Assembly (NCBI GenBank): GCA_022072125.1
Contig: JAJVIH010000016.1
Location: forward strand, 29,081-93,080
Reading direction: 5' to 3'
Source of the DNA: Myxococcota bacterium
GTDB lineage: Bacteria; Myxococcota; JAJVIH01
DNA length: 64,000 bases
Shown here: piece by piece, positions 24,497 through 62,079 of the stretch
Layout: every line of letters begins with the position of its first letter
How positions within the stretch are numbered: the stretch's first letter is position 1
Notes under the pieces: generated by a model
Databases searched by the model: none
The model's input: only the letters and a program-made list of their open reading frames with translations
Told to the model about the DNA's origin: nothing
Made by a program: the position numbers and the translations under genes

Positions 24497-24675
24497 GGGG
24501 GGCATCCGGAATGGCTCGCGGGCGGTTCCCGGGAACCGCCGGACTCACGCGGGATAGAGGAAATCCGCCGGTCCATCTTCCAGCCGCGGGCGGCGGCGTG
24601 ACCTGGAGGGACGCCGCGGCGGTCCGGATGGCCGTTTCACGGTGTTGAATGGACTGCTCGCGCGCAGGGGTGCGT

Positions 24676-24704
24676 TTGACACCCCCCGACCCCAAAACTA
24701 TATT
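24676..24704 (+). promoter_or_regulatory. Sigma70-like promoter for icd
   Basis: TTGACA (24676-24681), 17-nt spacer, TATATT (24699-24704), about 85 nt upstream of the icd ATG. Confidence 0.5.
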
Positions 24705-24789
24705 GCCCGCACTGAATTTCAGGCAGGATTCCGTGGTTTCGCCTGAACATCCCGGCTCTGGTCCGGGATTTTCTTTCCTGGAGTGTTCC

Positions 24790-27010
<2,221 letters not shown>

Positions 27011-28101: not shown

Positions 28102-29060
28102 CCGGTCACCTCCACGCCGCCGGCGGCCGCGCTGACAATCACGCGCTCCAGGCCGGGGATGGCCAACAGGGTTTCGCGCACGCGCGCCGCATGCTGGGGC
28201 GGATGCATCAACACGGGATGCGGCCCGGCGTCGCAGGTGAACCACGCCATCACGCCCTGGCGCCGCAATTCCACGGCGGCGCGCCAGGCGGCCAGCGTCG
28301 CAGGCAGAAAATACACCAGCGGCGGCCGGGCGGCGAAGCCGTCCGCATGCATCGCCAGGGCGTTGGCCTCAATCAGCGCGCCCGCGCCATCCACATCGCC
28401 GGAAAGCACGAGCCGCTCCAGGGTCTCCGCATCCTCCCGCGCGCGCCGGATCCACGCATCATGAAAGGAGGAGGTCTCCGCGCACGCCGCCATGCCGTCG
28501 CGCGAGGAGATGTCCTTGGGGCCGGTCTTCGCCACGCCAATGCTCCACACCCAGGGCAGGGCTTCCGGCGGTGCGATGCTGACAGCGTAAGGTTCGTCCA
28601 CGTCCGGAATCAGCCGGGTCACGCCGCCGGGAATGGCGCGGGCCGCCGAGCCGCTGCCCTTGCGGGCCAGGGCGGACAGCGCCCGTTCATCCAGGCGCAA
28701 ATCCGCCGCGTGCGCCGCGGCGGCGGCCAGCGCCGCGAAACCGGATGAAGACGAGGCCAGTCCCGCCGCCGTGGGAAAATCGTTGCGGCTTTCGATGCGG
28801 AAATGAAGCGGCTTGCCCGCCAGTTCGCGCACCAGGTCGAGAAAGGCGCCCGCCCGCGCAGCGGCTTTTGGCGAGTTTTCCCCATCGAGGCGTATCTCGT
28901 CCCGATCTCCGTCAATCACGCTGGCGGTGGTGATGGTGCGCAGGGCCTTGAGATTCACTCCCACGCTGCCGGCGGCGGGCAGGTTTCCCGCGCCGGGACG
29001 TTTGCCCCAGTATTTGGCCAGCCCCAGGTTGGCGTACGCGATGGCGGTGGCGCGGCTCAT
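28098..29060 (-). CDS. mvaD: Diphosphomevalonate decarboxylase
   Basis: AIAYANLGLAKYWGKR...GLASSSSGFAALAAAA (MVD motifs); ATGA overlaps on both sides. Confidence 0.88.
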   Translation of the reverse strand: MSRATAIAYANLGLAKYWGKRPGAGNLPAAGSVGVNLKALRTITTASVIDGDRDEIRLDGENSPKAAARAGAFLDLVRELAGKPLHFRIESRNDFPTAAGLASSSSGFAALAAAAAHAADLRLDERALSALARKGSGSAARAIPGGVTRLIPDVDEPYAVSIAPPEALPWVWSIGVAKTGPKDISSRDGMAACAETSSFHDAWIRRAREDAETLERLVLSGDVDGAGALIEANALAMHADGFAARPPLVYFLPATLAAWRAAVELRRQGVMAWFTCDAGPHPVLMHPPQHAARVRETLLAIPGLERVIVSAAAGGVEVTG

Positions 29061-29941
29061 GGCGTTTTCCACGGTTCCCGGGCGCCCAGCAGGGTCATCT
29101 CCCGGAAGTTGAAGGTGATGCGCAACAGGAAGCGGAAACCTTCCCGCTCCGTCAGTTCCAGGGCGCTGATGGGAACCTGCGCGCCCATGCCCAGCTCCCA
29201 CGCGCCGCCGCTGGCGAAGGTGACGGCGGGGCAAATGAACATGCCCCACTGCTTGCGTCCCGAGTCATAACTGGCGTTGACCTCCAGCAGGGGCGCGATC
29301 TGTTCGTACTGGAACAGGTAGGTCAGGGCGGCGTTGCCAATCCATATCCAGTCTGGACGGCGATCCGCCTCGCCGCCCGCCGCCAGCCAGACTCCGCTCT
29401 CCACCTGCGGGAAAAACCGGGCGGAACGCACGGGGACCATCGCCGCGACATAGGGACGGATGAAGGAATGGCGCGCGGCGCGGGCCGCGGCGGCGGCGTC
29501 CAGCCCCAGGTTCAGGCGCATCCAGACATCCGCGCCGAGGCCCAGCACGAATGGCGCGCGGGCGGGATCGCCGAAAGGCGTCAGCTTTCCGCCGAAGCGC
29601 AGGTAATCCACGCGGAAGTCGTTGGGCGTGCTGTCGGGATTGATGCGCAGCGGCAGGACGAAACCCAGTTCGCCGTAATGGAACAGGTTCCAGTTGACGC
29701 TGGGAAATTCGACATCAAACCCCACCTCCGGCGACGGACGAGGTTGTTCGAAAGGGCGGTTGATGACGCGAAGCTGCAGGTTGAAATCGGAGTCGGCCCA
29801 CGCGCGCCGGGTGAACATGGGCGTGATGGCGTGAAAGACGGTTTTGCCGTTCTCGACCGTGGCGACATGGGCGCGCGCGGCGAAGGGGGCGCAAACCAGG
29901 ACGAGCGCCAGCAAAATCCATGTTGAACCAGGCGGCTTCAC
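29057..29941 (-). CDS. Exported hypothetical protein with beta-strand-rich alternating pattern (possible OM beta-barrel)
   Basis: Signal peptide ...WILLALVLVCAPFAARA; start ambiguous (GTG about 29941 or TTG 29980); stop overlaps the mvaD start (ATGA). Confidence 0.65.
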   Translation of the reverse strand: MKPPGSTWILLALVLVCAPFAARAHVATVENGKTVFHAITPMFTRRAWADSDFNLQLRVINRPFEQPRPSPEVGFDVEFPSVNWNLFHYGELGFVLPLRINPDSTPNDFRVDYLRFGGKLTPFGDPARAPFVLGLGADVWMRLNLGLDAAAAARAARHSFIRPYVAAMVPVRSARFFPQVESGVWLAAGGEADRRPDWIWIGNAALTYLFQYEQIAPLLEVNASYDSGRKQWGMFICPAVTFASGGAWELGMGAQVPISALELTEREGFRFLLRITFNFREMTLLGAREPWKTP

Positions 29942-41411: not shown

Positions 41412-44400
41412 TCAGTAGGTTCCAATTTCTCCATTCTTGCCGGTTTCGCCCTGTTCTCCGCCGGCGCCGCCCGCGCCTCCGCCGCCGGGAATGAGCTGGT
41501 TGTTCAACGTGGTGGGCTTGGAACTGCCGGCCTGGATAATGGCGAAGGAAGGACCGCCTCCGCCTCCGCCGCCATCACCGCCCTTGCCGCCCTTGCCGCC
41601 ATCTCCGCCGCGCCCGCCGGCGCCGCCGTCGTTGCCGCTGTAGCTGGTGCTGCCGCCGGCGCCGCCGGTTCCGGCCTTGGCGGATTCGCCGCCGCGGCTG
41701 CCATCGCCGCCGTCTCCGCCCTTGCCGGAGATGATCGTGGAGTATTCAATCTTCGGCGAGGAATTCCACAGGAAGAGCCCCGCGGAAGCGCCGCCGGGTT
41801 CGCCGCCCTTGCCGCCCACGCCCCCTGCTCCACCGCCTCCGCCGCCGCCGCCCGCTCCGCCATAATCGGCGCAGCACCAGCCCAGATCGCCATCGCATCC
41901 GCCGCCACCGCCGCCACCACCGCCTCCGCCGCCGCCCGGCTGGCCATCTTCGCCGTCTCCGCCCTTGCCGCCGGTCCACTGGCCGTTCACCACCGAGCCC
42001 AAGCCATTGCCCATGGCGCCCGGAACACCGTCCTTGCCATCCTTGCCGCGTGCTCCCAGGCCGCCGCCTCCGCCGCGGGAACCGCCGCTGCCCGCGCCGC
42101 CCGCGCACCCACCCGCTCCGTCAGGGCCGGAGCCGCTGTCCGGATTGCACGGCTGAGCGCCCGCGCCCGGCGTTCCGGCGTTGCCGCCGCCCTTCTTGTG
42201 ACCCGGCACGCCGCCGCTGCCGCCGGTATTGGCGCCGTTGCCGCCGCTGCCCACATTGGGACGGCTGCACGAAGCGCAGCCCAGGCTGCCAATCCCGCCG
42301 ATGCCCCATTTTTCGCCGCCCGATTCGCATTGTGGATTGCCGGGGTTGCCAGTCTGGCCAATGTTGGCGTTGGCGGGAACCGGATCACCCGGCTTGCCGT
42401 CGGCGCCGTCGCCCGCCTGGATGACCGCCTTGTTGATCAGCAGGAAATCCTTCGAATCGCCCACCGCCACGCAGAACGCCGCTTCGCCGGGGGTGAAGGC
42501 GGACTGGCACTGCAATCCCACGTGATCGAGCACGGTCAATTCGGTCAGCCCCTGAACGAACATGATTCGCGGTTTCGAGCTGATCAGCTTGACCTCGTGG
42601 GTCTGGGAGCGTTTCCATGCGGCCTGCTGGTTGTAACCGCCGTACAGTTTGATGCCGTTGGGCAGCGAGATCGGGTTTTTGATGTTGTAGACGCCCTGCG
42701 AGATGTACACCGACTTGCTCGGGATATTCCGCGCGGCGGCGATACCGGCCTCGATGGTCTTCTTGGGTTTGTCCATCGTTCCGGGGGAGCCGTCGCTGCC
42801 CGAGGCGGAAACGTAGATCGCCTGGATATTCTTCGGATCCCGGCTTGCGAGGCCATCCACCCCATCGCAGTTGGAATCTTCGTAATCGTTGTCGGGAACG
42901 TCGTCCGGGCCCACGTAGTCGCAGGCGTATTCACACCCATTGGCCGGGTCGCCATCCAGATCCACCTTGCCCTTGTCGCATCCGGTGCCTTCGCCAAACA
43001 GCTTGAGCACCGTGCGTCCCGATCCGAATTTGGCGTGGACGATCGTGACTTCCGCTTCCACCGCTCCCACCTTGGTGGGTTGCAGGATGGCGGTCAGCTT
43101 GAGCACGGTCTTGTTGCCCGCTTCATTGACCAGTTCCGCCGGGTAGATGGTCGGAATGCCGTTGACCACAATCGCCGGATCGGGTTTGGTCACGGAAATG
43201 CTGTCAATTTCGATGGTTCCGGTGCCCGCGTTCTGCACGTAGATTTCCTTGGGGGGCGATTTGCCGCCAATGGACACCTTGCCCAGGTCCACCGGCGCGG
43301 GCGGGGTGATCTGCAGCTTGGGCTCCGATCCGACGCCTTCCACGGGGACTTCCACCGCGTTGGGCGAAGCCGCCGTGAGAATGAGGATTTTGTTTTCCCT
43401 CAGCCCCGCCTGCTTCGGTTCGAAGCTGACCTTCATTTCGTAAGTCTGCCCCGGGTCCACGCGGGTGGGCGCGTTGATCAGCTTGAAGTCGTCGCTGGTG
43501 ACGGCGAGTTTGACCTCCTTCACCACCAGGGATTCATCCGGCGAGACGTTGGTCAGGCGCAGGCTCTTTTCCGACTTCTGCCCCATCAGCGTTTCCGGGA
43601 AATTCAGCTTGGAGGGGTCCACCACAAGGCCTGCCGGGGTGACGCCCGCCGCCGCGCTCAGGGTGATGGTGGTCGCGCCGTCGTCGGGTTGGCCGTTGTT
43701 GTCAATGTCGGTGTCGTTGGTCTTGACATCAATCACCGCGTCATGACGGCCTTTTTTCTGTGCGAGGAAATTGACCGTGACCTTCACCTCCTGGCCGGGG
43801 TTCAGGAAGATCGGAATCTTCGCGTTGGGGTTCACGCCCACCACGTCGAAAGTCAACTGGAATTGATCAAACGCCGTGCCCGCCGTCTGCCGGACCTTGA
43901 ACTCGTTGAGTCCCAGGATGCTGGTTCCATTGCCGTTGTTCTTGACCGTGAAGACCTGATTGACCGGCTTGTTCACGTCGGTGGCGCCGAAGGTGATGGA
44001 ATGGTTCGCCGGGCCATTGGCGGCGGGCCACACCACCGTCGCCGGAGAGGCGTTGTTCTGGACGATGTTGTAATCCACCTCTCCCTTGTAGGTGCTGGCC
44101 ATCGCCACGCTGATTTTGGGGGTCTTGGCGTTGGAGATGACCTCGATGGTCCCGGAATCCGGCTTTTCATCGTCGGGTGAATACACCACCTGGAACACCG
44201 TCACGTCGCCCGGCTCCAGGATGGCCGCGGGGACCGGGTTGGGATCCAGCGCGAACGCCTTGCTGGTGGTGGATTCAAACTTCACTTCCAGCAACTGCAC
44301 CTTGCTCTGGCCCACATTGGAAATGCGCACCTGTTTGGTGGATGAACTGCCGAAACTGACCGCGCCGAAATCCAGCACCTGCGGGCTCACCTCCAGCACG

Positions 44401-44930
44401 CCCTCCGGGTTGATTTCGATTGGAGTGCATTTGCCCGTCTGGACCACGCAACGCTCGATATCCGGCTTGCAGTCCTTGTCGGATTTGCAGCCGCTGCCCG
44501 GGAATTTGCATACGCCCGACACGCAGGCGCCGTCTGGAGCGCAATCCGCGTCGCCGCTGCACAGGACATTGCCCGAACCATCCACGTCGCGGCAGAAAGA
44601 GGCCACGCATTTCTGATCGGACCGGCACTCGCTGTCCGCCGAACAAGGCACGCCGGCCGCGCCCTGGCAAACGCCGCCTTCACAGGTCTGCCCAGCCGGG
44701 CAGTCCAGGTTGCCGGTGCAGGAGATGGGGCCATCCCCCGGCGCCTCGCAGGTTCCTTCCTTGCAGACCTCGCCTTCGCCGCAGTCGAGGTCCGCCTGGC
44801 AGTTTTTCTGCGTCTGGCGGGGAGTGGGTTTGCCAACGCCCGCGTCGAGAATGCCGCCCGCGTCGCCACATCCCGCAATTCCCAAGGCGATGACCGTCAG
44901 GGCTGAAAATACAATGGAACAGGTCTTCAT
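41412..44930 (-). CDS. Giant multidomain surface lipoprotein, 1172 aa: Cys-rich EGF-like repeats, Ig-like (PapD/ASH-like) beta domains, beta-helix-like segment, Gly-rich collagen-like C-terminus
   Basis: Start taken at MKTCSIVFSALTVIALGIAGC (lipobox); C-x-x-G-x-C repeats; C-terminal about 330 aa is more than 50% Gly with GKDGKDGVPG / GKPGDPVP triplets and G13 runs. Confidence 0.85.
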   Translation of the reverse strand: MKTCSIVFSALTVIALGIAGCGDAGGILDAGVGKPTPRQTQKNCQADLDCGEGEVCKEGTCEAPGDGPISCTGNLDCPAGQTCEGGVCQGAAGVPCSADSECRSDQKCVASFCRDVDGSGNVLCSGDADCAPDGACVSGVCKFPGSGCKSDKDCKPDIERCVVQTGKCTPIEINPEGVLEVSPQVLDFGAVSFGSSSTKQVRISNVGQSKVQLLEVKFESTTSKAFALDPNPVPAAILEPGDVTVFQVVYSPDDEKPDSGTIEVISNAKTPKISVAMASTYKGEVDYNIVQNNASPATVVWPAANGPANHSITFGATDVNKPVNQVFTVKNNGNGTSILGLNEFKVRQTAGTAFDQFQLTFDVVGVNPNAKIPIFLNPGQEVKVTVNFLAQKKGRHDAVIDVKTNDTDIDNNGQPDDGATTITLSAAAGVTPAGLVVDPSKLNFPETLMGQKSEKSLRLTNVSPDESLVVKEVKLAVTSDDFKLINAPTRVDPGQTYEMKVSFEPKQAGLRENKILILTAASPNAVEVPVEGVGSEPKLQITPPAPVDLGKVSIGGKSPPKEIYVQNAGTGTIEIDSISVTKPDPAIVVNGIPTIYPAELVNEAGNKTVLKLTAILQPTKVGAVEAEVTIVHAKFGSGRTVLKLFGEGTGCDKGKVDLDGDPANGCEYACDYVGPDDVPDNDYEDSNCDGVDGLASRDPKNIQAIYVSASGSDGSPGTMDKPKKTIEAGIAAARNIPSKSVYISQGVYNIKNPISLPNGIKLYGGYNQQAAWKRSQTHEVKLISSKPRIMFVQGLTELTVLDHVGLQCQSAFTPGEAAFCVAVGDSKDFLLINKAVIQAGDGADGKPGDPVPANANIGQTGNPGNPQCESGGEKWGIGGIGSLGCASCSRPNVGSGGNGANTGGSGGVPGHKKGGGNAGTPGAGAQPCNPDSGSGPDGAGGCAGGAGSGGSRGGGGGLGARGKDGKDGVPGAMGNGLGSVVNGQWTGGKGGDGEDGQPGGGGGGGGGGGGGCDGDLGWCCADYGGAGGGGGGGGAGGVGGKGGEPGGASAGLFLWNSSPKIEYSTIISGKGGDGGDGSRGGESAKAGTGGAGGSTSYSGNDGGAGGRGGDGGKGGKGGDGGGGGGGPSFAIIQAGSSKPTTLNNQLIPGGGGAGGAGGEQGETGKNGEIGTY

Positions 44931-45177
44931 GTACCGCACGGCGGACCTTTCGATATGACCAGGCCGGACTTCTCGCACCCCCCGGATGACAAAATCCCAG
45001 AATCGAGGTGAAGGGGATATGATATCCGCCACACCTGACTGGCGACCCTCATCACTATAGCCAAACCGGGGAAAGATTGCATCCCCCAGTTGACCGTCCT
45101 TGCGCGTCAAATATGACGCGGCGCGTTATTAATGACTGCCCCCCCTCCCGAAGCGGCCGGGTCACGCCCGGGTTTCA

Positions 45178-46526: not shown

Positions 46527-49500
46527 ATGCGCAAGAACCTGTTGCTTCCAGTCTGCTTCGGAATATTCATCGCCGCCATCCAGTCGTGTTCGGGATGCCG
46601 TGAAACCGGCGGAGCCCCGCGCGCGCTGCGCGAGGCTAGCACCCAACCGGTCGCCGCCGTCAAGGAAATCCGCGCCCTTGCGGCCGCTGACTGGGGCGCC
46701 GCGGTTGGCGGCTCCGATGGCGTGGTGGCGGGCGTTCCCGCAAACGGATCGGCGCCCTTCGAGTTGCGCGGGCACGCAGCGCCGGTGACCCGGTTGTGCT
46801 TCGCCGCGAATGGCGAGCGGCTGGTTTCACTGGATCAATCCGGCGCCGCCAAGGTCTGGAACATCACATCGAAATCATGGTTGCGGGACCTGGCGCAAAA
46901 GGCCCCGGCCGTCACCGCCATGGCCAGCGAAGACGGATGGGCGGCGGCTGGCGCGGCGACCGGCGATATCACCCTGTGGCGGCCCGGGCCCGGGGGCGCT
47001 CCGGAACGGATCGAGGGACTATCAGCAGGGTCGGCCGTGCGCGCGCTGGCGTTTTCGCCTCGCGCAAAGCTGCTCGCCGCGGGAACCGAGGACGGCGCGT
47101 TGCGCATCCTCGATGTGGAATCGGGGTCGTGGCGGCCCTCCGCGGCCGCCTCCGGACCCGCCATCGCCGCCGTGCGCTTCGTCGAGACAAACGGCGTGAC
47201 GCGGCTCGTGGCGGTGCGGCGCAATGGTGAGTTCGCCTGGGCCGCGCCGGACGCCACGGACTTTCCGTGGCGGTCCTCCGGCCTCGATAAATTGAGCGCC
47301 GCCGCCATCGGCGGGCGCGGTGAAATCGCCGTGGCCCGTGACAGCGATCTGCGCGTATTCTTTCCCTCCGCCAAAAACAGCGGTGACTGGGAGCCGTGGA
47401 CTCTGCCCGCCGCCATTCCCCACGCGGCCGGCATCAGCGCATTGCATGTCTCGGGAGATGGAAAAACCGTTCTCACGGGCGGGCGTGACGGTCTTGTGGG
47501 TGTTTGGGATTCCCGCGGCGACGAGGTGAAAATCGTCTTTCGTGATCACGGCAATGTTGTAAGCGCCCTCGCCATGGACCCCCAGGGCAAGGTGATCGCC
47601 AGCGCGTCGGCGGATGGACAGATGATCTTCTGGCGGCTCAAGGGCGAGTTGCTGATCCTCAAGGCGAAGGCGGCGGGACCGCTCGCCGCACTGACGTTCG
47701 CAGCGCCGGACCGGGTGATTTCCGGCGGCGCCAGCGGCGAGATCGCGGCGTGGGATGTCTCCCTGACCCTGCCCGAATTGTACATGCGCCGGTACGTGCC
47801 CAGCGACTACCAGTACGCCTGCGCCAGCGGCGGCCAAATCATCGCGGCGGGGGATGGCTCGCGCAATGTGTGGCTGTGGGACAAGGACAACAACCGCATT
47901 CGCGTCATGCTCAAGGGTCTGACGGGGGCGGTGACGGCGATGGCGCTCAATCAGGCCGGGACAAAACTGGCGCTCGCCACCGGAGACGGGAAGCTTTGGA
48001 CATTCAATCCGGGAGATGGACAGCAGTTGCGCGAGGCGCCGCTGGTCACGTTGTCCCAACATGCGTTGAGTTCGGCTTTGATCCACCGCCTGGCGGCGGC
48101 GGGAGACTGGGTGATCGCCGCCGGTCCGCGTCATGTATGGGTGTGGAACAGCGCCGCCTCTTCCGTGAACGTGGTGGAGTCTCCCGGGGCGGCGGGCGGG
48201 CCGGTGGACGTGGCGGTTTCCGGCGATTCATCCGCCGCCATCCTGCACGACCGGCACGTGCGGCTTCTGGACCCGGCCAAACCGCCGCAAATACAAACCA
48301 TTGTATTGCCCAGGAGCGGCGCCAGCCGCATCGCGCTGGCGCCCGGCGGCGGCTTTGTCGTGGGGTTCGGCGATGGCGCGGTCGAACGCTACAACGCCAA
48401 AGGGATGGCGGCGGGCGGTTGCAAGGGGCTGACTGGTCCCGTGTTGCGCTTGGCGGTTTCCGCCACGGCCATCGCCGCCTCAACCGCCGGCGACGAGATG
48501 CGCTGGCCGGTCACGTGCGGCGCGGGCAAGCTGGCGCAGGCGCCCAGCGACATGGCGGCCGCGTGCCGTTATCAGAATGGACATTTGGTCGAGACCTCTC
48601 CGGCGCTGCTCGATTCCTTGCGCACCGAGGAGCCGCAACTGTTTGAACTGGTCGAGCCGCGGCGCCGGGAATTCACCGCGGCCGCGGCCGGGTCCAGCGG
48701 CATGGGCGGACAAATGGTGCTTGTCGCGTCGGCAGCCGGCGAGGTTTCCGTGCGCGACGCCGCCGCCGGCCGCGTGATCAACGCCTGGCCGCATTCCTCT
48801 CCGCGCACCGCCGCTTTGTCCGTGCCGCGCGCGCCCATCTTCGTGGTGGGATCGGAAGACGGCGCGTTGCAGGTGCTCGACGCCAGCACCGGCAAGGATC
48901 GCGTGTTCACCCAGACGGGGCGCGGCGGCGTGCGCGCCATGGCGGCCGGGCCCGATCAGTTCGCCGTGCTCTACGAAAAGGGCGTGGCCCTGCGCGCCTT
49001 CGCCACCCTCGCCGAAACCGCGTGGGCGCCGCTCGAAGGCGTGAACGCGATCAGCGTGGCGGCCGGCAAGGACATGGTTTGGGTGGGAGATGACAAGGGC
49101 GCCATCCACCCCATTGGGGTCAATGGAGAAAAATCCCGTCCCGTGCAGGCGGGAAACGCGCCCATCCGCGCCCTCGCCGCCGGGAAGGATGGCGTATTGT
49201 GGGCGGGCGACAACGCCGGTTTCCTGTGGCGGATTCCCGCCAGCGGCGCGCCGGAAAAATTCCCGCTGGATTCCACGGCCGTCACCGGGCTTCAGTTGGT
49301 CTGGAATGATCAATGGCTGATCGCGCTGACTTCCAGCGGCAAACTGCTGGCGTGGGACATCGCCCAATCGGTCATCCGGTTTGAAAAAACCGGCCTGGGC
49401 GGTCACAGCGATGTGCTGGCGGTCAGCGCGGACAACGCCTGGGTCATCAACGCCGGGCAGACGGGAGCGCAGGTCTGGCGGCTGAGCCGCGGCGAATTTC

Positions 49501-50090
49501 TTGCTTCATTGAAGGAGAGCGCGCCCATCTTCGCCGGGCTGGCCTGCCATCCCGCCCAGCCCGTCGCCTGGGTGGTCACCTCGCGCGATGAACTGTGGGA
49601 ATATCAACTGGATAGCGGTCAGGCCGGTGTCAACAAGAGTTTTTCCGGGGCGATACTGCGGCGCAACAAGGAAGAAGAGGAAGCCGCCTGGTCAGTGAGC
49701 ATCAACGGGGCCGTCATACCGGTTGACAGGGATTCCATGTCCGGGATCGGGGAGCGCAAACAGACCCGTATGCGGGCCGGCATGGGGGACGTGATCACAA
49801 CCATTCACCAAAAGGGCGATAGCTGGGTCTGGTCCCACCCCGCGCTTCCGGAGGAAGGCCTGAAGGTGTTTCCCGCGGGCGCACGGCTGTTGGCCTATGA
49901 CTGCGGTGGAAAGGATGCCTGCACCGCCGTGGCCACGGATCGGGTGGTGTGGCTGAAGGCGGCGCCCCAGGCGTCGTCCGTGACGAGACCGTTGCCCCGT
50001 CCCGCCATCCTGGCCCGGATTCATGGCGACCGGCTTTTCGCCGCCGGGGCGCCCAATATCGTGACGGTTTATCCGTTGCAGGCGGATTGA
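46527..50090 (+). CDS. Giant WD40/beta-propeller repeat lipoprotein, 1187 aa
   Basis: Lipoprotein signal peptide MRKNLLLPVCFGIFIAAIQSC; repeated WD-like ...GHxxxVxxLAFSPxGxxLAxGxxDGxLRIWD patterns throughout. Confidence 0.85.
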   Translation: MRKNLLLPVCFGIFIAAIQSCSGCRETGGAPRALREASTQPVAAVKEIRALAAADWGAAVGGSDGVVAGVPANGSAPFELRGHAAPVTRLCFAANGERLVSLDQSGAAKVWNITSKSWLRDLAQKAPAVTAMASEDGWAAAGAATGDITLWRPGPGGAPERIEGLSAGSAVRALAFSPRAKLLAAGTEDGALRILDVESGSWRPSAAASGPAIAAVRFVETNGVTRLVAVRRNGEFAWAAPDATDFPWRSSGLDKLSAAAIGGRGEIAVARDSDLRVFFPSAKNSGDWEPWTLPAAIPHAAGISALHVSGDGKTVLTGGRDGLVGVWDSRGDEVKIVFRDHGNVVSALAMDPQGKVIASASADGQMIFWRLKGELLILKAKAAGPLAALTFAAPDRVISGGASGEIAAWDVSLTLPELYMRRYVPSDYQYACASGGQIIAAGDGSRNVWLWDKDNNRIRVMLKGLTGAVTAMALNQAGTKLALATGDGKLWTFNPGDGQQLREAPLVTLSQHALSSALIHRLAAAGDWVIAAGPRHVWVWNSAASSVNVVESPGAAGGPVDVAVSGDSSAAILHDRHVRLLDPAKPPQIQTIVLPRSGASRIALAPGGGFVVGFGDGAVERYNAKGMAAGGCKGLTGPVLRLAVSATAIAASTAGDEMRWPVTCGAGKLAQAPSDMAAACRYQNGHLVETSPALLDSLRTEEPQLFELVEPRRREFTAAAAGSSGMGGQMVLVASAAGEVSVRDAAAGRVINAWPHSSPRTAALSVPRAPIFVVGSEDGALQVLDASTGKDRVFTQTGRGGVRAMAAGPDQFAVLYEKGVALRAFATLAETAWAPLEGVNAISVAAGKDMVWVGDDKGAIHPIGVNGEKSRPVQAGNAPIRALAAGKDGVLWAGDNAGFLWRIPASGAPEKFPLDSTAVTGLQLVWNDQWLIALTSSGKLLAWDIAQSVIRFEKTGLGGHSDVLAVSADNAWVINAGQTGAQVWRLSRGEFLASLKESAPIFAGLACHPAQPVAWVVTSRDELWEYQLDSGQAGVNKSFSGAILRRNKEEEEAAWSVSINGAVIPVDRDSMSGIGERKQTRMRAGMGDVITTIHQKGDSWVWSHPALPEEGLKVFPAGARLLAYDCGGKDACTAVATDRVVWLKAAPQASSVTRPLPRPAILARIHGDRLFAAGAPNIVTVYPLQAD

Positions 50091-51519: not shown

Positions 51520-51700
51520 CCATTAGGTTGGTTTTCACGCCCTGACATGTCGTCAGGACGTGGGAGGAAGCCGGTGCGAATCCGGCGCTGACCCGCAACC
51601 GTGAGTTCTGTTTCCGACAGAACAAGCCGGGAACTCCTTCACTGCAACTCCCTCGTGGTCTGGGGCAGGCAGAATCCGCATTCAGCGCCGCATGGCCGTG
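51520..51700 (+). ncRNA. Cobalamin (B12) riboswitch candidate
   Basis: Core GGGAGGAAGCCGGTGCGAATCCGGCGCTGACCCGCAACCGTGAG matches the consensus AGGGAA..GGTG.AA.TCC..GC.G.CCCGC.AC.GT.A; B12-box-like TTCACTG and GGGGCAGG downstream; in the 5' leader of the 51785 gene. Confidence 0.6.
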
Positions 51701-51784
51701 CCGTCAGGCCGGCCGGCGCCATCCGGTTTCTCTCCACAAACACGATGGGGTTTCTCACGCGACCCTTCTCTGGAGGAAGCCGAG

Positions 51785-52816
51785 ATGACCCATCCCAAGT
51801 CCGTTCATTCCATTTCCCTTGCCGTGCTGCTGGCGCTTTCCTGCTGGCTGGCCGGCTGTTCCGGCGACGCCGCGTCTTCCGATGGCGGATCAAACGCCGG
51901 CGGCGCCGGCCCCAAGGACGCCTCGCCGCCGCCGGATGCGGGCCCCGCCGATGGCGCCTTATCTGACAGCGCCCCGGCGGACGCCGCTCCAGGCGATGTG
52001 GCTGCAACTGACACGGCGCCTGGCGACGCCCAGCCGGCGGATGCGGGCGCGCCAGATGCGAATCCAGTGGACGCCGGCCCCGCGGATACGGCGCCCGCCG
52101 ATGCGCAGCCCACCGACACCCAGCCCGGCGATGGCGGTCCGGCGACGGCCCCGGGGCTGGCGATTGCGGGCGTTTACGCCAACAGTTTCGGCGGCTACGA
52201 GGAAATCACCAGCGCCCTGTGGAACGATACGCCCATCGTCGAGTTCGATAACAACAAGCGCGTGGTCTATACCCGGAATCCAGCGGATGCGAAGTTCAGC
52301 CCGGGCAAATTCAACAAGATCGTATTCACGGTTCCGGGCGGCGCATCGTTCCATTACTGCTTCGCGGACTTTGGCCTTGACTCGCTGGAGGCGGCGAAGG
52401 CGTCATCCAAGGCCGTGGACGAAAGCGATCCGGACAAGAAAGGCTGCGGCGGATTCTCCTGGACCAAATTGACCGCCACGGATCCGATTGAAATCGCCGG
52501 AACCTGGTCCAGCAATTTCGGCGGCGAGGAGATCATCCGCAGCATCCGCTGGGGCAAGGCGTCCATCAAACTCTTCGATAACGGGTCCAACACCGCCTAC
52601 ACGCAGAATCCGGAAGACGCCCCGGCCGGAGCCAGGAAATTCAGCAAGCTGGTCTGGACCGAACCGGTGGGCGGCGTTTTCCACTACTGCACGGTGGATT
52701 TCAACCTGGACACCCTCGCCGCGGCGCAGGCTTCGGCCAAAACCGCCGATCCATCCAACCCTGAAAAGGGAGGCTGCGGCGGGTTCTCCTGGACCAAACT
52801 CAACAGGAAAAACTGA
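51785..52816 (+). CDS. Lipoprotein with two tandem ~100-aa repeats of an unrecognised domain
   Basis: ATG with GGAGGA RBS; lipobox LAGC; PADA-rich linker; repeats IAGVYANSFGG...FHYCFADFGLDSLEAAKAS...KKGCGGFSWTKL and IAGTWSSNFGG...FHYCTVDFNLDTLAAAQAS...KGGCGGFSWTKL. Confidence 0.78.
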   Translation: MTHPKSVHSISLAVLLALSCWLAGCSGDAASSDGGSNAGGAGPKDASPPPDAGPADGALSDSAPADAAPGDVAATDTAPGDAQPADAGAPDANPVDAGPADTAPADAQPTDTQPGDGGPATAPGLAIAGVYANSFGGYEEITSALWNDTPIVEFDNNKRVVYTRNPADAKFSPGKFNKIVFTVPGGASFHYCFADFGLDSLEAAKASSKAVDESDPDKKGCGGFSWTKLTATDPIEIAGTWSSNFGGEEIIRSIRWGKASIKLFDNGSNTAYTQNPEDAPAGARKFSKLVWTEPVGGVFHYCTVDFNLDTLAAAQASAKTADPSNPEKGGCGGFSWTKLNRKN

Positions 52817-55494: not shown

Positions 55495-56898
55495 GTGAGC
55501 GAGCATACCTTTGACGTAGTGGTGATCGGCAGCGGACCGGGCGGTTATGTCGCCGCGGCGCGCGCCGGAGCGCTTGGCCTGAAAACCGCTGTCATTGAAA
55601 AGGACAATGTTCTGGGCGGCACCTGCCTCAACCGCGGCTGCATCCCCACCAAGGCCATCCTGCACGCCGCCGATATTCTCACCGAACTCCACGAAGCCAG
55701 TCAGTACGGCATCACCACCAATTCGGTGAACGTGGATATCGAGAAACTGATGAAGCGCAAGCAGGCGGTGGTGGCGGGCCTGAACGGCGGCGTCAAGACG
55801 CTGATGAAAAAGCGCAACGTCACGGTGTTCGAGGGCCTGGGCGCCTTCCGCGACGCCAACACCATCACCGTGTCCAAAAACGGCCAGGTCACCGATGTGC
55901 TGAAATTCAAGAACGCCATCGTGGCCGTGGGCACGGTTCCCCGCGAACTTCCAGGCTTTGAGTTTGACGGCCAGCGGGTCATTTCCAGCGACCATGCGCT
56001 CAACATCACCAAGGTTCCCGCGCGCTTCCTGGTGCTGGGCTCCGGCGCCGTCGGCGCCGAATTCGCCAGCGCCTACGCCCGCTTCGGGTCGAAGACCACG
56101 GTGGTCGAGATCATGCCGCGCCTGATGCCCCTCGCCGACGCCGATGTCTCGGCGGAGTTGAAAGCGGATTTCGAGCGCCAGGGCATCGAGTGCATGATCA
56201 ACACCAAGATGGAAAGCGTCACCCGCACCGCCAATGGCGTCGCCGCGAAGGTCCGCATGCAGGATGGCGGCGAGCGCGTGCTGGAGGCCGATCAATTGCT
56301 GGTGGCGGTGGGTCGCAAAACCCTGGTCGAGAATATCGGCCTCGACAAGGCGGGCGTGAAGGTGGAGCGCGGCATGATCGTGGCCAACGAATTCATGCAG
56401 ACCAGCGCGCCGCATATTTACGCCATCGGCGATGTGGTGGGAAAAGCCGCCCTCGCCCACGTGGCCTCGGCGGAAGGGCAGGTCGCCGCCGAGCATATCG
56501 CCGCCGGCAAGGCGGAAACCGTTCCCTACCATGCGATCCCCTGGAACGTGTACACCGAACCGCCCATTGGCTGGGTTGGATTGACCGAGCAGCAGGCCCG
56601 GGACAAGGGTTACGATGTCGTCACCGCCAAATTCGGATTTTCTCACAGCTCCAAGGCGACCATCCTCGGCAAGCGCCGCGGCTTCATCAAGATCGTCAGC
56701 GAAAAAAAACACGGCGAGGTGCTGGGCGCCCATATCATCGGCCCCGCCGCCACCGAGTTGATCGGCGAATTGGGCTACGCCATCACCATCGAAAGCAGCG
56801 TGGAGGACATCGCCCGCACGGTGCATGCCCATCCCACCCTGTACGAAGGCATCATGGAAGCGGCGGCGATGGCGGCCGGACACCCCATCCACGGTTGA
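55495..56898 (+). CDS. lpdA: Dihydrolipoyl dehydrogenase (E3)
   Basis: VVVIGSGPGGYVAA...GGTCLNRGCIPTK redox-active disulfide; full E3; GTG start. Confidence 0.92.
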   Translation: MSEHTFDVVVIGSGPGGYVAAARAGALGLKTAVIEKDNVLGGTCLNRGCIPTKAILHAADILTELHEASQYGITTNSVNVDIEKLMKRKQAVVAGLNGGVKTLMKKRNVTVFEGLGAFRDANTITVSKNGQVTDVLKFKNAIVAVGTVPRELPGFEFDGQRVISSDHALNITKVPARFLVLGSGAVGAEFASAYARFGSKTTVVEIMPRLMPLADADVSAELKADFERQGIECMINTKMESVTRTANGVAAKVRMQDGGERVLEADQLLVAVGRKTLVENIGLDKAGVKVERGMIVANEFMQTSAPHIYAIGDVVGKAALAHVASAEGQVAAEHIAAGKAETVPYHAIPWNVYTEPPIGWVGLTEQQARDKGYDVVTAKFGFSHSSKATILGKRRGFIKIVSEKKHGEVLGAHIIGPAATELIGELGYAITIESSVEDIARTVHAHPTLYEGIMEAAAMAAGHPIHG

Positions 56899-56900
56899 TC

Positions 56901-57860
56901 ATGGCCATCAGCAAGCAGGAAAAGAAGGAACTCTACCGCCTGATGGCGCTCAACCGCGCCATCGAGGAGCGCCTGACCATCCTCTACCGGCAGGGCAAGG
57001 TGGTGGGCGGCCTGTATCGCTCGCTGGGACAGGAGGCGACCAGCGTGGGCGCCGCCTATGCGCTCCGGGACGGCGACTACATCGGCGCCATGATCCGCAA
57101 CCTGGGCTCGCTGATCGTGCGCGGCGTCAAGCCCCGCGAGGTCATGCTCCAGTACATGGCGCGCAAGGAAGGCCCCACCGGCGGCCGCGACTGCAACCTG
57201 CACATGGGCGACATGAGCCGGGGCATCGTCGCCTGCATTTCCATGCTTGGCGATCTGATACCGGTCATGGCGGGGGTGGGGCTGGCGCTCAAGAAACGCA
57301 ACCAGCGGAATGTCGCCATGACCTTCATCGGCGACGGCGGCGCGTCCACCGGCGCCTTTCACGAGGGACTGATCATGGCCGCCGCCATGGAGGTCCCGCT
57401 GGTGCTCATCGTCGAGAACAACGGCTACGCCTACTCAACCCCCACCAGCAAGCAGTTCAAGACCAAGGACCTGCTGGTGCGCGCCCAGGCCTATGGCATT
57501 GAAGCCGCGCAGGTGGACGGCAACGACATCGAGGCGGTGGTTGAAACGGCGCGGGCCGGTTGTGAATACGCCCGCAAGACCTGGAAGCCGTACTACATCG
57601 AGGCCATGACCTTCCGCATGAAGGGCCACGCCGAGCATGACGACGCCTCCTACGTGCCAAAATCCCTGATGGACAAATGGCGCGTGAAGGATCCCATCAT
57701 CAATTACGAAAAGAAGCTGCTGAAGGCCAAAGTGCTGACCCAGGCCGAGGTGGACGCCATTCACAAGGAAATCCAGTCCGCGCTCGATCTGGAAGTGGAC
57801 GCCGCCCTCAACAGCTCATTCCCCGATCCCGCCGCCGTGGGCGATCGGGTTTACGCCTGA
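56901..57860 (+). CDS. 2-oxoacid dehydrogenase E1 component alpha subunit (TPP-dependent; BCKDH/PDH-type)
   Basis: ...IGDGGASTGAFHEGLIMAA...VLIVENNGYAYSTP TPP-binding motif; 319 aa. Confidence 0.9.
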   Translation: MAISKQEKKELYRLMALNRAIEERLTILYRQGKVVGGLYRSLGQEATSVGAAYALRDGDYIGAMIRNLGSLIVRGVKPREVMLQYMARKEGPTGGRDCNLHMGDMSRGIVACISMLGDLIPVMAGVGLALKKRNQRNVAMTFIGDGGASTGAFHEGLIMAAAMEVPLVLIVENNGYAYSTPTSKQFKTKDLLVRAQAYGIEAAQVDGNDIEAVVETARAGCEYARKTWKPYYIEAMTFRMKGHAEHDDASYVPKSLMDKWRVKDPIINYEKKLLKAKVLTQAEVDAIHKEIQSALDLEVDAALNSSFPDPAAVGDRVYA

Positions 57861-57870
57861 TGGAGCAACC

Positions 57871-58845
57871 ATGCCGGTGATGACCTATCTGGAGGCCATC
57901 AAGGATGGCATCCGCCACGAGATGCGGCGCGATCCAAACGTATTCGTGATCGGCGAGGACGTGGGCGGGTACGGCGGCGCTTTCAAGGTGACGCAGGGGC
58001 TGATTGACGAATTTGGCGAGGACCGGGTCATGGACACCCCCCTGGCCGAAACCGGATTCGTCGGCGCCGCCATTGGCGCGGCCTATATGGGTTTCCGGCC
58101 CGTGGTCGAGATGCAGTTCATTGACTTCATCGCCTGCGCTTTCAACCAGATCACCAACATGGCGGCCAAGAGCCACTACCGCTGGGGCCAGCAATGTCCC
58201 CTGGTGATCCGCGGTCCCTCGGGCGGCGGCGTATCCGGCGGCCCCTACCATTCCCAGTCCCCGGAATCGTATTTTGTCCATACCGCCGGCCTGAAGGTGG
58301 TCATGCCCGCCACCGCGGCGGACGCCAAGGGACTGATCATCGCCTCCATCCGCGACAACAACCCGGTCATCTACCTGGAGCACAAATTCCTCTACCGGCG
58401 CGTCAAGGACGACGTTCCCGGGGGAGAGTTCGTGGTCCCCCTGGGCAAGGCGCGCCTGGCCCGGGAAGGGCGGCATATCTCCGTCATCACCTGGGGCGCC
58501 ATGGTGCATACCGCCCTCGACGCCGCCGGCCAGTTGGAAAAAGACGGCGTGTCGCTGGAGATCATTGACCTGCGCAGTCTCGTTCCATGGGACAAGGAGA
58601 TGGTGCTCGCCTCCGTGAAGAAGACCGGCAAGGTGATTGTTCTGCACGAGGCGCCCCACACGGGCGGCTTCGGCGGCGAGGTGTCGTCGTACATCACCGA
58701 ACACGCCTTTTCCTGGCTGGATGGCCCGGTGCGCCGCATTTCGGCGCTGGATACTCCGGCGCCCTACAGCCCGCCGCTGGAGCAGGCCTACCTGCCGCAG
58801 GCCCATGATATCGTCCGCGTCTCCCGCGAACTGGCCGCTTTCTGA
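57871..58845 (+). CDS. 2-oxoacid dehydrogenase E1 component beta subunit
   Basis: ...VFVIGEDVGGYGGAFKVTQGL...GFVGAAIGAAYMGFRPVVEMQF... Confidence 0.92.
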   Translation: MPVMTYLEAIKDGIRHEMRRDPNVFVIGEDVGGYGGAFKVTQGLIDEFGEDRVMDTPLAETGFVGAAIGAAYMGFRPVVEMQFIDFIACAFNQITNMAAKSHYRWGQQCPLVIRGPSGGGVSGGPYHSQSPESYFVHTAGLKVVMPATAADAKGLIIASIRDNNPVIYLEHKFLYRRVKDDVPGGEFVVPLGKARLAREGRHISVITWGAMVHTALDAAGQLEKDGVSLEIIDLRSLVPWDKEMVLASVKKTGKVIVLHEAPHTGGFGGEVSSYITEHAFSWLDGPVRRISALDTPAPYSPPLEQAYLPQAHDIVRVSRELAAF

Positions 58846-58848
58846 TGC

Positions 58849-59859
58849 ATGGTGAATGGAATGAGCGCGATCATTCTGCCCAAACCCGATCGTCTGAGCC
58901 CGCTGGCCCGCCGCGTCCTGCGCGCCAGGGGACAAACCGCGCCGCCGGTGAAGGGCTCCGGCTTTCTGGGCCGTGTGACCCTGGCCGATCTGGAAGGCAG
59001 GGCCGCTCCTCCTCCCGCTCCCCCCGCGCCGTCGGCCGCGGCTTCCGCTGTCTCCGCCGCCCCATCCGCGAGAGCGGCGCCGCCATTGCCCGCCGCGGTG
59101 AAGCCCAGGGAGCCGCTGACCATGCTGGGCTCTCCGGTTCCACCTGAAGAAGCCGCCGCCTGCGGCCCGGACGCCGAAGTGCGCCGCATGCCGCCCATGC
59201 GCAAGACCATCGCCGCCAACATGATCGAGTCCAAGCGCACGAGCGCTCATGTCAACTCCTTCTGGGAAGCGGATATGGAGCGCATCGCCCGCCACCGCGA
59301 CGCGGCGAAGGATCGTTTCAAGGAGCGGCAGGGAACTTCATTGACCTTTCTCGCCTATATCGCCCGCGCGGTGGCCTGGTCCCTGGCCCGGCATCCCTAC
59401 GTCAACTGCTCGGTCAGTGGAACGGACATCGTGTTTCACAAGCACGTCAACCTCGGCATCGCCGTCGCGCTGGATCAGGGATTGATCGTGCCGGTCATCC
59501 GCCGCGCCGAGGAACTCAACACCACCGGCCTGGCGCGGGCGATCGCCGATCTGGCGGCGCGGGCGCGCAACCGCAAGCTCCAGCCGCAGGATGTCCAGGG
59601 CGGCACCTTCACCATCACCAACATCGGCAGCTTTGGAAATTCCACCGGCATGCCCATCATCAACCAGCCGCAAACCGCCATCCTGGCGGCGGGCGCCATC
59701 CGCAAACAGCTTGTGGCGCTGAATGACAGCGATGTGGCGATCCACCATGTGCTCAAGATGAGCCTGTCCTTTGATCACCGCGTCATTGACGGATCCGCCG
59801 CGGATCTCTTTCTCGGCGACGTGAAAAAATTCCTGGAAGGCTGGAACGAGGGACTCTGA
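58849..59859 (+). CDS. Dihydrolipoamide acyltransferase (E2) catalytic core with E3-binding domain but no lipoyl domain
   Basis: PSBD SPLARRVLRARGQTAPPVKGSGFLGRVTLADLEG at residues about 13-50; Pro/Ala linker; catalytic domain ending ...LSFDHRVIDGSAADLFL; starts 4 nt after the E1beta stop. Confidence 0.85.
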   Translation: MVNGMSAIILPKPDRLSPLARRVLRARGQTAPPVKGSGFLGRVTLADLEGRAAPPPAPPAPSAAASAVSAAPSARAAPPLPAAVKPREPLTMLGSPVPPEEAAACGPDAEVRRMPPMRKTIAANMIESKRTSAHVNSFWEADMERIARHRDAAKDRFKERQGTSLTFLAYIARAVAWSLARHPYVNCSVSGTDIVFHKHVNLGIAVALDQGLIVPVIRRAEELNTTGLARAIADLAARARNRKLQPQDVQGGTFTITNIGSFGNSTGMPIINQPQTAILAAGAIRKQLVALNDSDVAIHHVLKMSLSFDHRVIDGSAADLFLGDVKKFLEGWNEGL

Positions 59860-59902: not shown

Positions 59903-60937
59903 ATGAGCAACGGCAAACCATCCCGCGGGGAACAACTGGGGGCGCTCCTGACGGCGGACGACAGCCCGCAACGGCGGGCCTTTGTATCCATCGCGGTGGA
60001 CGCCCTGCTCGACACCCCCGTGAACCAGTTGCTGGACGCGGGAGAAATCAGCGAGTGGATCACCCTGCTGCTGGCCGAAGCCCCCATGCGCCGGGCCCTC
60101 CGCCTGCATGTCCGGCCCGGCTGGGATCGCGCCCGCGAACGGGCCCGGCAAAGCGGCGAAACCCTGGGCGATTGGGTTCCGGAAGGCGCCGGAGATGAAA
60201 TCGCTGCGCTGATCGCGCACCGGCCGCAACCCAAATTCGAGTGGCTCAAGGGAGCGTTGGATGGCGCGCTGGTCCAGCAGCTCGTCGCTCCGGTGCTTCA
60301 GGAAACCCTGGTCAGCTTTGTGCAGAAGGTGCGTTTGCCGGTGGGCGACGGCGCTCCCGCGGCGGCGGTCGGCGCCGCCATTGGCGGCGTGGCGGGCCTG
60401 CTGAAAAAGCAGGTGGAGAAAAACGCCGATCTGATCAAGGCCGTGGGTAAGGGTGTGATGGGCAGTCTGGGCGCCGAGATGGAATCGCGCCTGCAGGAAA
60501 TGGCGAAGGATTTCAGCCGCACCGCCTCGAAGCAGATGCAGGAGTCTTTCCAGGCCCGCGTCAACAGTCCGGAAGGCCGGAAGCTGGTGAAGGAAATCCA
60601 GTCCAGGTTCCTCGATCATCTGGCGAAAACCCCCGTGCAGGTGATCCTCGACGACCTGTCCGTGCTGCCTTTTGACCGCATGGATGAACTGAATATCCGC
60701 ATCAACGCCCACAACGCCGGGCGAGACGGCTTCCGGGCGGCGTTGCGCGCGGAAGCGGAAGCCGTGCTGGCGGCCGAGAGCGGCAAGACCCTGCGCGCCA
60801 TCCTCCAGGAAACCGGCCAGATCGATGATTTCCTGCGGCTGGCGCCGCCGCCGGCGGATCGCCTGGCGCGCGCCATCTTCGCCTCTCCGGCTTTTTCCGC
60901 CTGGCTGAATGATTTGATCGAATCCGCCGCGGAATGA
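59903..60937 (+). CDS. Hypothetical alpha-helical protein, 344 aa
   Basis: Complete ORF with no known domain; stop overlaps the next frame (ATGA). Confidence 0.65.
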   Translation: MSNGKPSRGEQLGALLTADDSPQRRAFVSIAVDALLDTPVNQLLDAGEISEWITLLLAEAPMRRALRLHVRPGWDRARERARQSGETLGDWVPEGAGDEIAALIAHRPQPKFEWLKGALDGALVQQLVAPVLQETLVSFVQKVRLPVGDGAPAAAVGAAIGGVAGLLKKQVEKNADLIKAVGKGVMGSLGAEMESRLQEMAKDFSRTASKQMQESFQARVNSPEGRKLVKEIQSRFLDHLAKTPVQVILDDLSVLPFDRMDELNIRINAHNAGRDGFRAALRAEAEAVLAAESGKTLRAILQETGQIDDFLRLAPPPADRLARAIFASPAFSAWLNDLIESAAE

Positions 60938-61050
60938 CGAAATGGTCCGTGGACCGGGCCGGTTGCGCCGGCGTCCGCCTGCCGGTTGACCTTTTCCCGG
61001 GAAGGTACATACTGGTTGCGTCACGGACGGGTTCGAAGGAGAAGATCATC

Positions 61051-62079
61051 ATGGCGGATCCAGTCATTCTTCGGACAGTAAAATGGGGTGTCGCGGTCTC
61101 CGCGCTGGCGCTGGGCGCCTGTGGCGGCGGGACCGCGCCGGAAAGCGCCATCGCGGTATCCAAATCCGCTCTGGGAGGCGATGCCTTCGCCATGGTCGCC
61201 GGGCTATTCGAGCCCGCGCAGCCGCCACGGATACGCCCCTCCGCCGCAGGCGAATCCACCCCCGGGCAGTACTGGGCGCTGGATGGCGTCCAGGTCGAGG
61301 AACTGGCGCTGGGGGTTTATCCCAACGGCGATCTGTCCGTGGATCGCGGCGAGATTTGGTTCGCCGATACGGGTCTGGACGCCATTTTCCGGCTGAAGGA
61401 TGGACAGCCGGAACTGGCGCTCAAGCTGGCGGAAGACATCTCCACCTTCAAGGTCGAGAACCAGCGCGTGTGGGTCAGCACCTACGCGCCGGAGGGCGTC
61501 TCCATGTTGCGTTCGTTCGAGTTGAACGGCGAACAGCGGGAGACCATCGCCCTCGACTCCACCGGAGACTCCTTCCTGACCGTGCTGGATATCGCCGAGG
61601 CGCCCGACGGGGCATGGCTGATCGCCGGGGCCGATTCCAGCCCCGATCCGGATCGCCTGACCATCCTCTCCGCCGAAAGCGGCGTGGACATGGTATCCGC
61701 TCCCGGCGTGATGGAGGATATCGCCGCCACGGCCTGGTGGAATGGGCATGATGTCATTGCGGTGCGGCGCTTCGAGACCCAGGGACCCGTGCTGGCCTTC
61801 AGCGATGGACAACCCATCGCCGCGTCCGTTTCGCTTCCCGCGCCCGGCCCCCATGGCGAAGCCGGTCTGGCGGCGGACTCCGCGGGAGCGCTCTATTACG
61901 TATCCCCGCGCTCCAATATGCTCTACCGCCTGCGGGAGACGGACCAGGAAGCCGTTCCGGTGGCGGGTGGATTTCATGCGCCCACGGATGTGGTTTACGA
62001 CGGCGAGAACCACCGGCTGATCGTGGCCTGCGCCGATCGAATCGTATCGGTCCGCCTGCCCTCCGCGGCGGGGATGTAA
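61051..62079 (+). CDS. Hypothetical beta-propeller-like lipoprotein
   Basis: ATG with AAGGAGAAG RBS; MADPVILRTVKWGVAVSALALGAC lipobox. The 60934 ATG that overlaps the upstream stop is the alternative start. Confidence 0.7.
   Translation: MADPVILRTVKWGVAVSALALGACGGGTAPESAIAVSKSALGGDAFAMVAGLFEPAQPPRIRPSAAGESTPGQYWALDGVQVEELALGVYPNGDLSVDRGEIWFADTGLDAIFRLKDGQPELALKLAEDISTFKVENQRVWVSTYAPEGVSMLRSFELNGEQRETIALDSTGDSFLTVLDIAEAPDGAWLIAGADSSPDPDRLTILSAESGVDMVSAPGVMEDIAATAWWNGHDVIAVRRFETQGPVLAFSDGQPIAASVSLPAPGPHGEAGLAADSAGALYYVSPRSNMLYRLRETDQEAVPVAGGFHAPTDVVYDGENHRLIVACADRIVSVRLPSAAGM

Follow-up and report, generated by a model that had tools for sequence, protein, structure and literature searches.

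Within a 64-kb stretch, free of Ns, of one contig (JAJVIH010000016.1, 371,855 bp) from a single Myxococcota metagenome-assembled genome (MAG), which we refer to as the window, we found a 2-oxoacid dehydrogenase operon whose E2 acyltransferase has no lipoyl domain. The operon consists of lpd, encoding dihydrolipoyl dehydrogenase (E3), the genes for the E1alpha and E1beta subunits, and the gene for a short E2 that begins almost directly with a peripheral-subunit-binding domain (PSBD) and continues into the catalytic domain. In enzymes of this class, reductive acylation of a lipoyl-lysine by E1 is followed by transfer of the acyl group to CoA by E2 and by reoxidation of the dihydrolipoyl group by E3; textbooks attribute the substrate channelling of these complexes to the lipoyl arm that is covalently tethered to E2. 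The operon as encoded contributes three active sites and a docking domain, and no lipoyl-lysine carrier. As encoded, the complex must therefore obtain an arm from another protein, or it cannot run the normal cycle. Our reading, to which we assign a probability of roughly 45%, is that the E2 is a real, derived, truncated form that would draw on a lipoyl domain in trans.

Operon layout and family assignment

Open reading frame (ORF) and Pfam analyses recovered the ORF layout and the set of four genes, lpd, E1alpha, E1beta, and E2, as they had been described in a sequence-only reading of this DNA (Table 1). The window proteins were identical to the NCBI entries MCG3172578 (lpd), MCG3172580, and MCG3172581 (E2). 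The lpd product matched PF07992/PF02852, with Pyr_redox_2 from residue 6 on and without an N-terminal lipoyl domain; its translation contained the CLNRGC redox disulfide, and it scored 537.6 bits against NCBIfam TIGR01350, above the equivalog cutoff of 408.8. The E1alpha gene started at the ATG at 56901, not at 56904, and its product had as its closest solved structures human branched-chain 2-oxoacid dehydrogenase (BCKDH) E1alpha, a Thermus 2-oxoacid dehydrogenase, and Geobacillus pyruvate dehydrogenase (PDH) E1alpha. E1beta scored 360.7 bits against NCBIfam NF006667, a PDH-E1beta subfamily with a cutoff of 321, and its closest homologues were 67–68% identical and mostly from Acidobacteriota/Terriglobia. 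Since E1alpha (254.8 bits against NCBIfam PDH_E1_alph_x, under the cutoff) and E2 fell under every curated NCBIfam cutoff, no choice between pyruvate and a branched-chain 2-oxoacid as the substrate could be made. The operon is that of a 2-oxoacid dehydrogenase with a heterotetrameric E1 and resembles the pyruvate or branched-chain kind.

The cognate E1 and E3 genes lie immediately upstream of the E2 gene on the same strand. The spacers between adjacent genes were 2 nt (lpd–E1alpha), 10 nt (E1alpha–E1beta), and 3 nt (E1beta–E2), and the last junction reads TTC TGA TGC ATG, with three bases between the E1beta stop and the E2 ATG. The GC content at third codon positions (GC3) was 0.80, like that of the neighbouring genes. 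The tight spacers and the proper starts fit a co-translated working unit.

Absence of a lipoyl domain from E2 and from the window

Pfam detected PF00364, the domain that in canonical E2s bears the lipoylatable Lys in a DKA/DKV turn, in none of the lpd, E1alpha, E1beta, and E2 products. A lipoyl hidden Markov model (HMM) was also built from the N-termini of 112 close homologues. With the filters off, it gave zero matches when searched against the stop-to-stop segments of at least 30 aa from all six frames of the whole window. Likewise, phmmer --max searches of the 64 kb with E. coli GcvH, LipA, and the first AceF lipoyl domain gave no match, and neither did those with the AccB biotinyl domain and an Acidobacteriota LplA/LipB-type ligase. 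In addition, the roughly 45 ORFs of the window that we scanned with Pfam showed no lipoyl, GcvH, or lipoate-metabolism domain. There is no room for a lipoyl domain upstream in E2, since its ORF begins 3 nt after the E1beta stop. Together, these results bear out the claim of the sequence-only reading that neither E2, E3, nor the rest of the cluster has a lipoyl domain; an upstream domain, whether in frame or frameshifted, was likewise absent from every frame of the window.

A lipoyl-independent or altered function would offer another explanation for this absence. In that case, E2 could act only as a scaffold or as an acyl-CoA transferase that uses some other carrier, such as a soluble dithiol, or TGA read-through could produce an E1beta–E2 fusion. 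The lack of any lipoyl-related gene in the window, the diverged PSBD (see below), and the fact that E1beta and E2 stand in one frame with only TGA-TGC between them all agree with such a function. However, chance alone would give a shared frame in one case out of three, and TGA is also the normal stop codon of lpd, E1alpha, and E2 in this operon; the shared frame is probably the result of this chance plus translational coupling. Furthermore, the residues responsible for lipoamide and CoA catalysis are unchanged, free lipoamide is a very poor substrate of E1, and no precedent was found in the literature. We thus consider an altered function very unlikely.

Comparison with related loci

We compared the operon with 164 relative loci (80 loci from GTDB species genomes, 80 loci from JGI metagenomes, and 4 context loci). 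A lipoyl-domain match was found just 5' of the catalytic domain in all loci in which the upstream DNA was present (~157/157), and the remaining 7 of the 164 loci all start at a contig end. Two of the relatives were Myxococcota; L057 has a lipoyl domain, and the L077 locus is cut off where its contig begins. The closest E2 among 5.8 billion proteins reached 47% identity, and PF00364 was present in nearly all of the homologues listed. Since every readable relative locus has the domain, the ancestor of the window E2 would also have had it. On this comparison, the lipoyl-less E2 is a derived form and is so far unique to this MAG among the relatives sampled.

Several database entries that appeared to be lipoyl-less E2s were rejected as such. 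P0070 (L002 5796–7212) was split by a frameshift, with a 59-aa Biotin_lipoyl ORF located just upstream; P0099 and P0009 still have the end of a lipoyl domain at their start; and P0007, P0015, and P0082 were cut by contigs of ~1 kb. P0027 (401 aa, on a 97-kb contig) was also without PF00364 and had a different N-terminus; its genomic context was not part of the comparison. Counts of domain architectures would overestimate lipoyl-less E2s, given such split or mis-started E2 genes in databases.

The window E2 could itself be an artefact of MAG assembly or consensus calling, in which ~0.3–0.45 kb of a normal lipoyl–PSBD–catalytic E2 gene had been collapsed out of the contig. The source is a single metagenome assembly, an exact-protein look-up found no independent contig with the E2, E1beta, or lpd protein, and the apparent lipoyl-less relatives in databases (P0070, P0099, and those on ~1-kb contigs) were artefacts. 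Unlike those database cases, however, the window contains no leftover lipoyl-coding fragment in any frame. The junction is clean (stop, three bases, ATG), the E2 ORF is complete, the sequence has no Ns, and the other two operon spacers are equally short. In addition, most relatives carry the lipoyl domain in a single copy. These features make an artefact improbable.

The gene order lpd–E1alpha–E1beta–E2 had been regarded as atypical in the sequence-only reading, and this was not borne out. The same order was present in L015, L043, and L082, where it is followed by an LplA/LipB-type ligase gene, and L003 has the order lpd–ligase–E1alpha–E1beta–E2. The closest E2 homologues, which were mostly from Acidobacteriota, lay most often in the context lpd–E2–ligase without E1 genes (e.g., L013, L021, and L030); the E1 partner(s) of those E2s are therefore encoded elsewhere. 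The Acidobacteriota operons L015, L043, L082, and L003 have the same four enzymes, order, and strand as the window, with E1beta being 56–68% and the E2 catalytic domain 50–58% identical, and their E2s have the PSBD–linker–catalytic layout and the catalytic motifs in common with the window E2. In contrast, these E2s carry one or two N-terminal lipoyl domains and an outer linker, of which the window E2 has none, and the operons usually have an adjacent LplA/LipB-type ligase gene, which the window operon is without. The spacers also differed, being ~20–200 nt in L015, L043, and L082 and 2–10 nt here; the E1beta–E2 spacer of the relatives was ~17–200 nt. The whole window operon is compacted, and not the E1beta–E2 junction alone.

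Probable origin of the truncation

In a MAFFT alignment, E2 residues 2–9 (VNGMSAII) were placed on the last beta-strand of the lipoyl domain of the relatives (consensus VNTVVGTI). The score of this octamer in a position-specific scoring matrix (PSSM) was in the top 0.035% of octamers from the window ORFs, and it was the only scoring register near the N-terminus; the full lipoyl HMM does not detect it. These results are weak evidence that residues 2–9 are a remnant of the last lipoyl-domain strand. A single 5' deletion extending from the E1beta–E2 spacer into the lipoyl domain, plus the loss of the outer linker, may have generated the present gene, and the missing domain and the 3-nt junction would both be due to such a deletion. 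After the deletion, the E2 gene would have been translationally coupled to E1beta. If residues 2–9 are a remnant, the octamer has already diverged from a near-invariant strand, which softly argues that the deletion was not very recent.

Domains of the truncated E2

The structure of the E2 predicted by AlphaFold2 had an overall predicted local distance difference test score (pLDDT) of 77 and a predicted TM-score (pTM) of 0.65. Residues 1–12, 54–71, and 83–104 had a pLDDT of <50 and were disordered. The catalytic domain was predicted with a pLDDT of ~90 or above, and Foldseek related it to solved E2 cores (E ~1e-26); phmmer against PDB sequences likewise gave catalytic-domain matches down to 8e-50. 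All family-invariant residues of the catalytic domain were kept, including DHRVIDG, S132, and GGTFTITN. The PSBD matched PF02817 at residues 16–49 with 18.5 bits, under the cutoff of 23.7. It retained the family-invariant S17, P18, R21, G36, G38, R42, and D47 in the alignment with the relatives, and AlphaFold2 modelled it with helices at residues 18–27 and 45–49 (pLDDT ~80).

A proposed supply of the lipoyl arm in trans

According to our proposal, the truncated E2 would still form a core, dock E1 and E3 via its PSBD, and transfer the acyl group to CoA, and the lipoyl-lysine would be that of a protein whose gene lies outside the window. The sequence-only reading held that such a core must borrow lipoyl domains or depend on a separate carrier, and we consider this the most plausible mechanism. 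The likeliest donor would be a full-length E2 paralogue from this subfamily, acting within a mixed core or from an adjacent complex; a lipoyl-domain or GcvH-like protein that stands alone would be a less likely donor. Paralogous E2 loci were present in one relative genome, with L008 and L028 both belonging to the MAG palsa_357, and with the frequent E1-less lpd–E2–ligase clusters this makes paralogy common among the relatives. Since lpd passes the dihydrolipoyl dehydrogenase equivalog cutoff, one or more lipoylated proteins are to be expected in the genome; the role of dihydrolipoyl dehydrogenase is the reoxidation of protein-bound dihydrolipoyl groups. A broader form of the proposal is that a free-standing, PSBD-containing E2 core outside Actinobacteria and Mollicutes may have permanently lost its swinging arm, with the alpha2beta2-E1/E2/E3 complex being serviced wholly in trans by a stand-alone carrier or by shared or mixed-core lipoyl domains. 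In this broader form, we regard the proposal as doubtful.

Several points weigh against a working E2 that borrows its lipoyl arm. No donor lipoyl protein was seen within the 64-kb window. E1 enzymes discriminate between lipoyl domains in favour of the cognate one, and borrowing would therefore require a compatible donor. The lineage is represented by a single genome in the collections searched, with the closest E1beta being 68% identical, and no E2 relative above 48% (near-full-length) or 57% (catalytic domain) was found in the searches of 5.8 billion proteins, GTDB, and JGI. Since there is one genome only, the truncated state is not demonstrable as conserved or selected. The lipoate ligase gene that accompanies the operon in the relatives is absent here, and its absence would equally fit the loss of a lipoyl-dependent function. 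The PSBD was off the consensus at 9 of the 21 conserved columns (43%), compared with 26 of 117 (22%) in the catalytic domain in the same alignment, and it was 39% identical to the relatives, compared with 74% among the relatives themselves. Finally, the identity of the E2 catalytic domain to the relatives was 0.53, whereas 0.61 ± 0.04 would be expected at a comparable E1beta distance, so that it is low by ~2 SD.

A non-functional or decaying relic would account for a number of these points, namely the joint absence of the lipoyl domain and the flanking ligase gene, the strong divergence of the PSBD, the catalytic identity slightly under expectation, and the lack of a sister genome conserving the truncation in this singleton lineage. 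In a relic, the deletion would perhaps be recent or confined to the assembled strain, oxidative decarboxylation would not occur, the ORFs would not yet have acquired lesions, and lpd may serve other complexes. Against this, the four ORFs are intact, have family-typical lengths, and encode the invariant catalytic residues; the tight spacers suggest translational coupling throughout; and the GC3 matches that of the neighbouring genes. If residues 2–9 are a remnant, their divergence also weakly argues that the deletion was not recent. The deviation at conserved columns was 17.5% for the E2 catalytic domain, 19% for E1alpha, and 11% for E1beta, and that for lpd was 30% as measured on a different, larger set of loci. 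E2 thus deviates no more than E1alpha or lpd, and this test for E2-specific relaxed selection gave no sign of it in the catalytic domain. The sequence comparisons together indicate that the window operon is a general outgroup, that its E2 catalytic domain is without E2-specific decay, and that the PSBD alone stands out. We accordingly judge a relic to be rather unlikely.

Significance

If the operon is active, it would represent a third independent lipoyl-less core, from a different phylum, with an E2 that retains its PSBD and with the lipoyl domain on no operon partner. A free-standing E2 core serviced in trans would, if this is true, be a new organisational solution for the enzyme class. An active operon would also provide a simple natural system for studying lipoyl tethering, the choice by E1 of a lipoyl domain in trans, and mixed E2 cores in bacteria. 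An inactive operon would be merely a deletion allele in one MAG, and mainly a warning that the automatic annotation "dihydrolipoyllysine-residue succinyltransferase" masks the defect.

Other genes in the window

Two orphan genes follow E2 (Table 1). The first of them, at 59903–60937, occupies the position of the lipoate ligase gene of the relatives. We considered this orphan as a lineage anchor and rejected it, since it had a single homologue among 5.8 billion proteins (35% identical), which lies in an unrelated context by a membrane protein. The product of the second orphan has an N-terminal hydrophobic stretch ending in Cys and looks lipoprotein-like by eye.

Upstream of the operon, the gene at 51692–52816 encodes a 374-aa protein with no Pfam match and with an Asp/Ala/Pro-rich low-complexity region; the protein contains two copies of a module of ~100 aa ending in ...FHYC..DF.LD.L.AA.AS.K..D.S.P.K.GCGGFSWTKL. 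Two very large ORFs, at 41412–45110 and 46527–50090, encode a 1232-aa protein in which HYDIN/ASH/DUF1573-type Ig-like domains are repeated and a 1187-aa protein with multiple WD40 repeats, respectively. The stretches 24649–27010 and 28098–29249 contain adjacent isocitrate and malate dehydrogenase genes and, near them on the opposite strand, a diphosphomevalonate decarboxylase gene (mevalonate pathway).

Table 1. Positions in the window of the operon genes, the segments of the E2 gene, and the orphan genes that follow
Feature	Position	Strand	Length	Remarks
lpd (E3, dihydrolipoyl dehydrogenase)	55495–56898	+	467 aa	GTG start; AGGAG 7 nt upstream
E1alpha (thiamine diphosphate-binding subunit of heterotetrameric E1)	56901–57860	+	319 aa	PF00676, E=4e-68
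E1beta	57871–58845	+	324 aa	PF02779/PF02780; GGAG ribosome-binding site; stop TGA 58843–58845
E2 acyltransferase without lipoyl domain	58849–59859	+	336 aa	Same frame as E1beta
Possible lipoyl-strand remnant VNGMSAII	58852–58875	+	E2 residues 2–9	MAFFT and PSSM
PSBD, diverged	58894–58998	+	E2 residues 16–50	Sub-threshold Pfam match, kept invariants, AlphaFold2
Ala/Pro-rich inner linker	58999–59172	+	E2 residues 51–108	Predicted disordered
CAT-like catalytic domain	59173–59847	+	E2 residues 109–333	PF00198, E=1.4e-77
Orphan gene after E2	59903–60937		344 aa	No Pfam/NCBIfam match; 43-nt spacer from E2
Second orphan gene	60934–62079		381 aa	Overlaps the first orphan by 4 nt; no Pfam/NCBIfam match

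Comparison with known systems

To our knowledge, natural complexes with a lipoyl-less core are very rare, the known ones being OdhA of Corynebacteriales and the PDH of Mycoplasma hyopneumoniae. We searched the literature for E2s that naturally have no lipoyl domain and for stand-alone lipoyl carriers serving these complexes; the cases of Mycoplasma and Corynebacterium were all that we found, and there was no literature match for the accessions or the locus tag of this MAG.

OdhA is not known to have a PSBD. Its E2o is fused to an E1o of the homodimeric type, whereas the window operon encodes a separate 336-aa E2 and an E1 split into alpha and beta subunits. The window E2 scored 102.7 bits against NF008907, under the cutoff of 878, and its match to 8p5t (E=2e-20) reflects a generic sequence relation only. 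In the hybrid PDH–ODH complex of Corynebacterium, the E2-type succinyltransferase domain of OdhA, which is without a lipoyl domain of its own, uses those of AceF (PMC10415282, PMC7568260). This is the model for the mechanism that we propose. The parallel with OdhA/Kgd drawn in the sequence-only reading thus holds for the function and fails for the architecture, since OdhA is an E1o–E2o fusion and the window E2 is free-standing with a PSBD.

The E2s of Zymomonas mobilis, Neisseria meningitidis, and Alcaligenes eutrophus still have their own lipoyl domain(s). Lipoyl domains on other subunits, namely on E1beta in Z. mobilis and on E3 in N. meningitidis and A. eutrophus, are cited in PMC7873978. 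These cases indicate that the position of the lipoyl domain is evolutionarily flexible. The window operon differs from them in that the lipoyl domain is on no operon subunit.

NCBIfam NF008815/PRK11857, which we take to be Mycoplasma PdhC, is a short-E2 profile of 308 positions. The window E2 aligned to it from the PSBD on, its residue 17 falling on position 7 of the 308, which suggests the same PSBD–catalytic layout, one that leaves a lipoyl domain no space; its score of 182.2 bits was under the cutoff of 378, and it is a non-member of this family. In the PDH of M. hyopneumoniae, the lipoyl domain is on PdhD/E3 and not on E2 (PMC7873978). The short E2 of this type, consisting of a PSBD and a catalytic domain only, has the architecture that is also seen in the window E2, and this complex is the closest architectural precedent. 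The two systems differ in E3, which carries the lipoyl domain in M. hyopneumoniae and is a plain 467-aa Lpd in the window operon.

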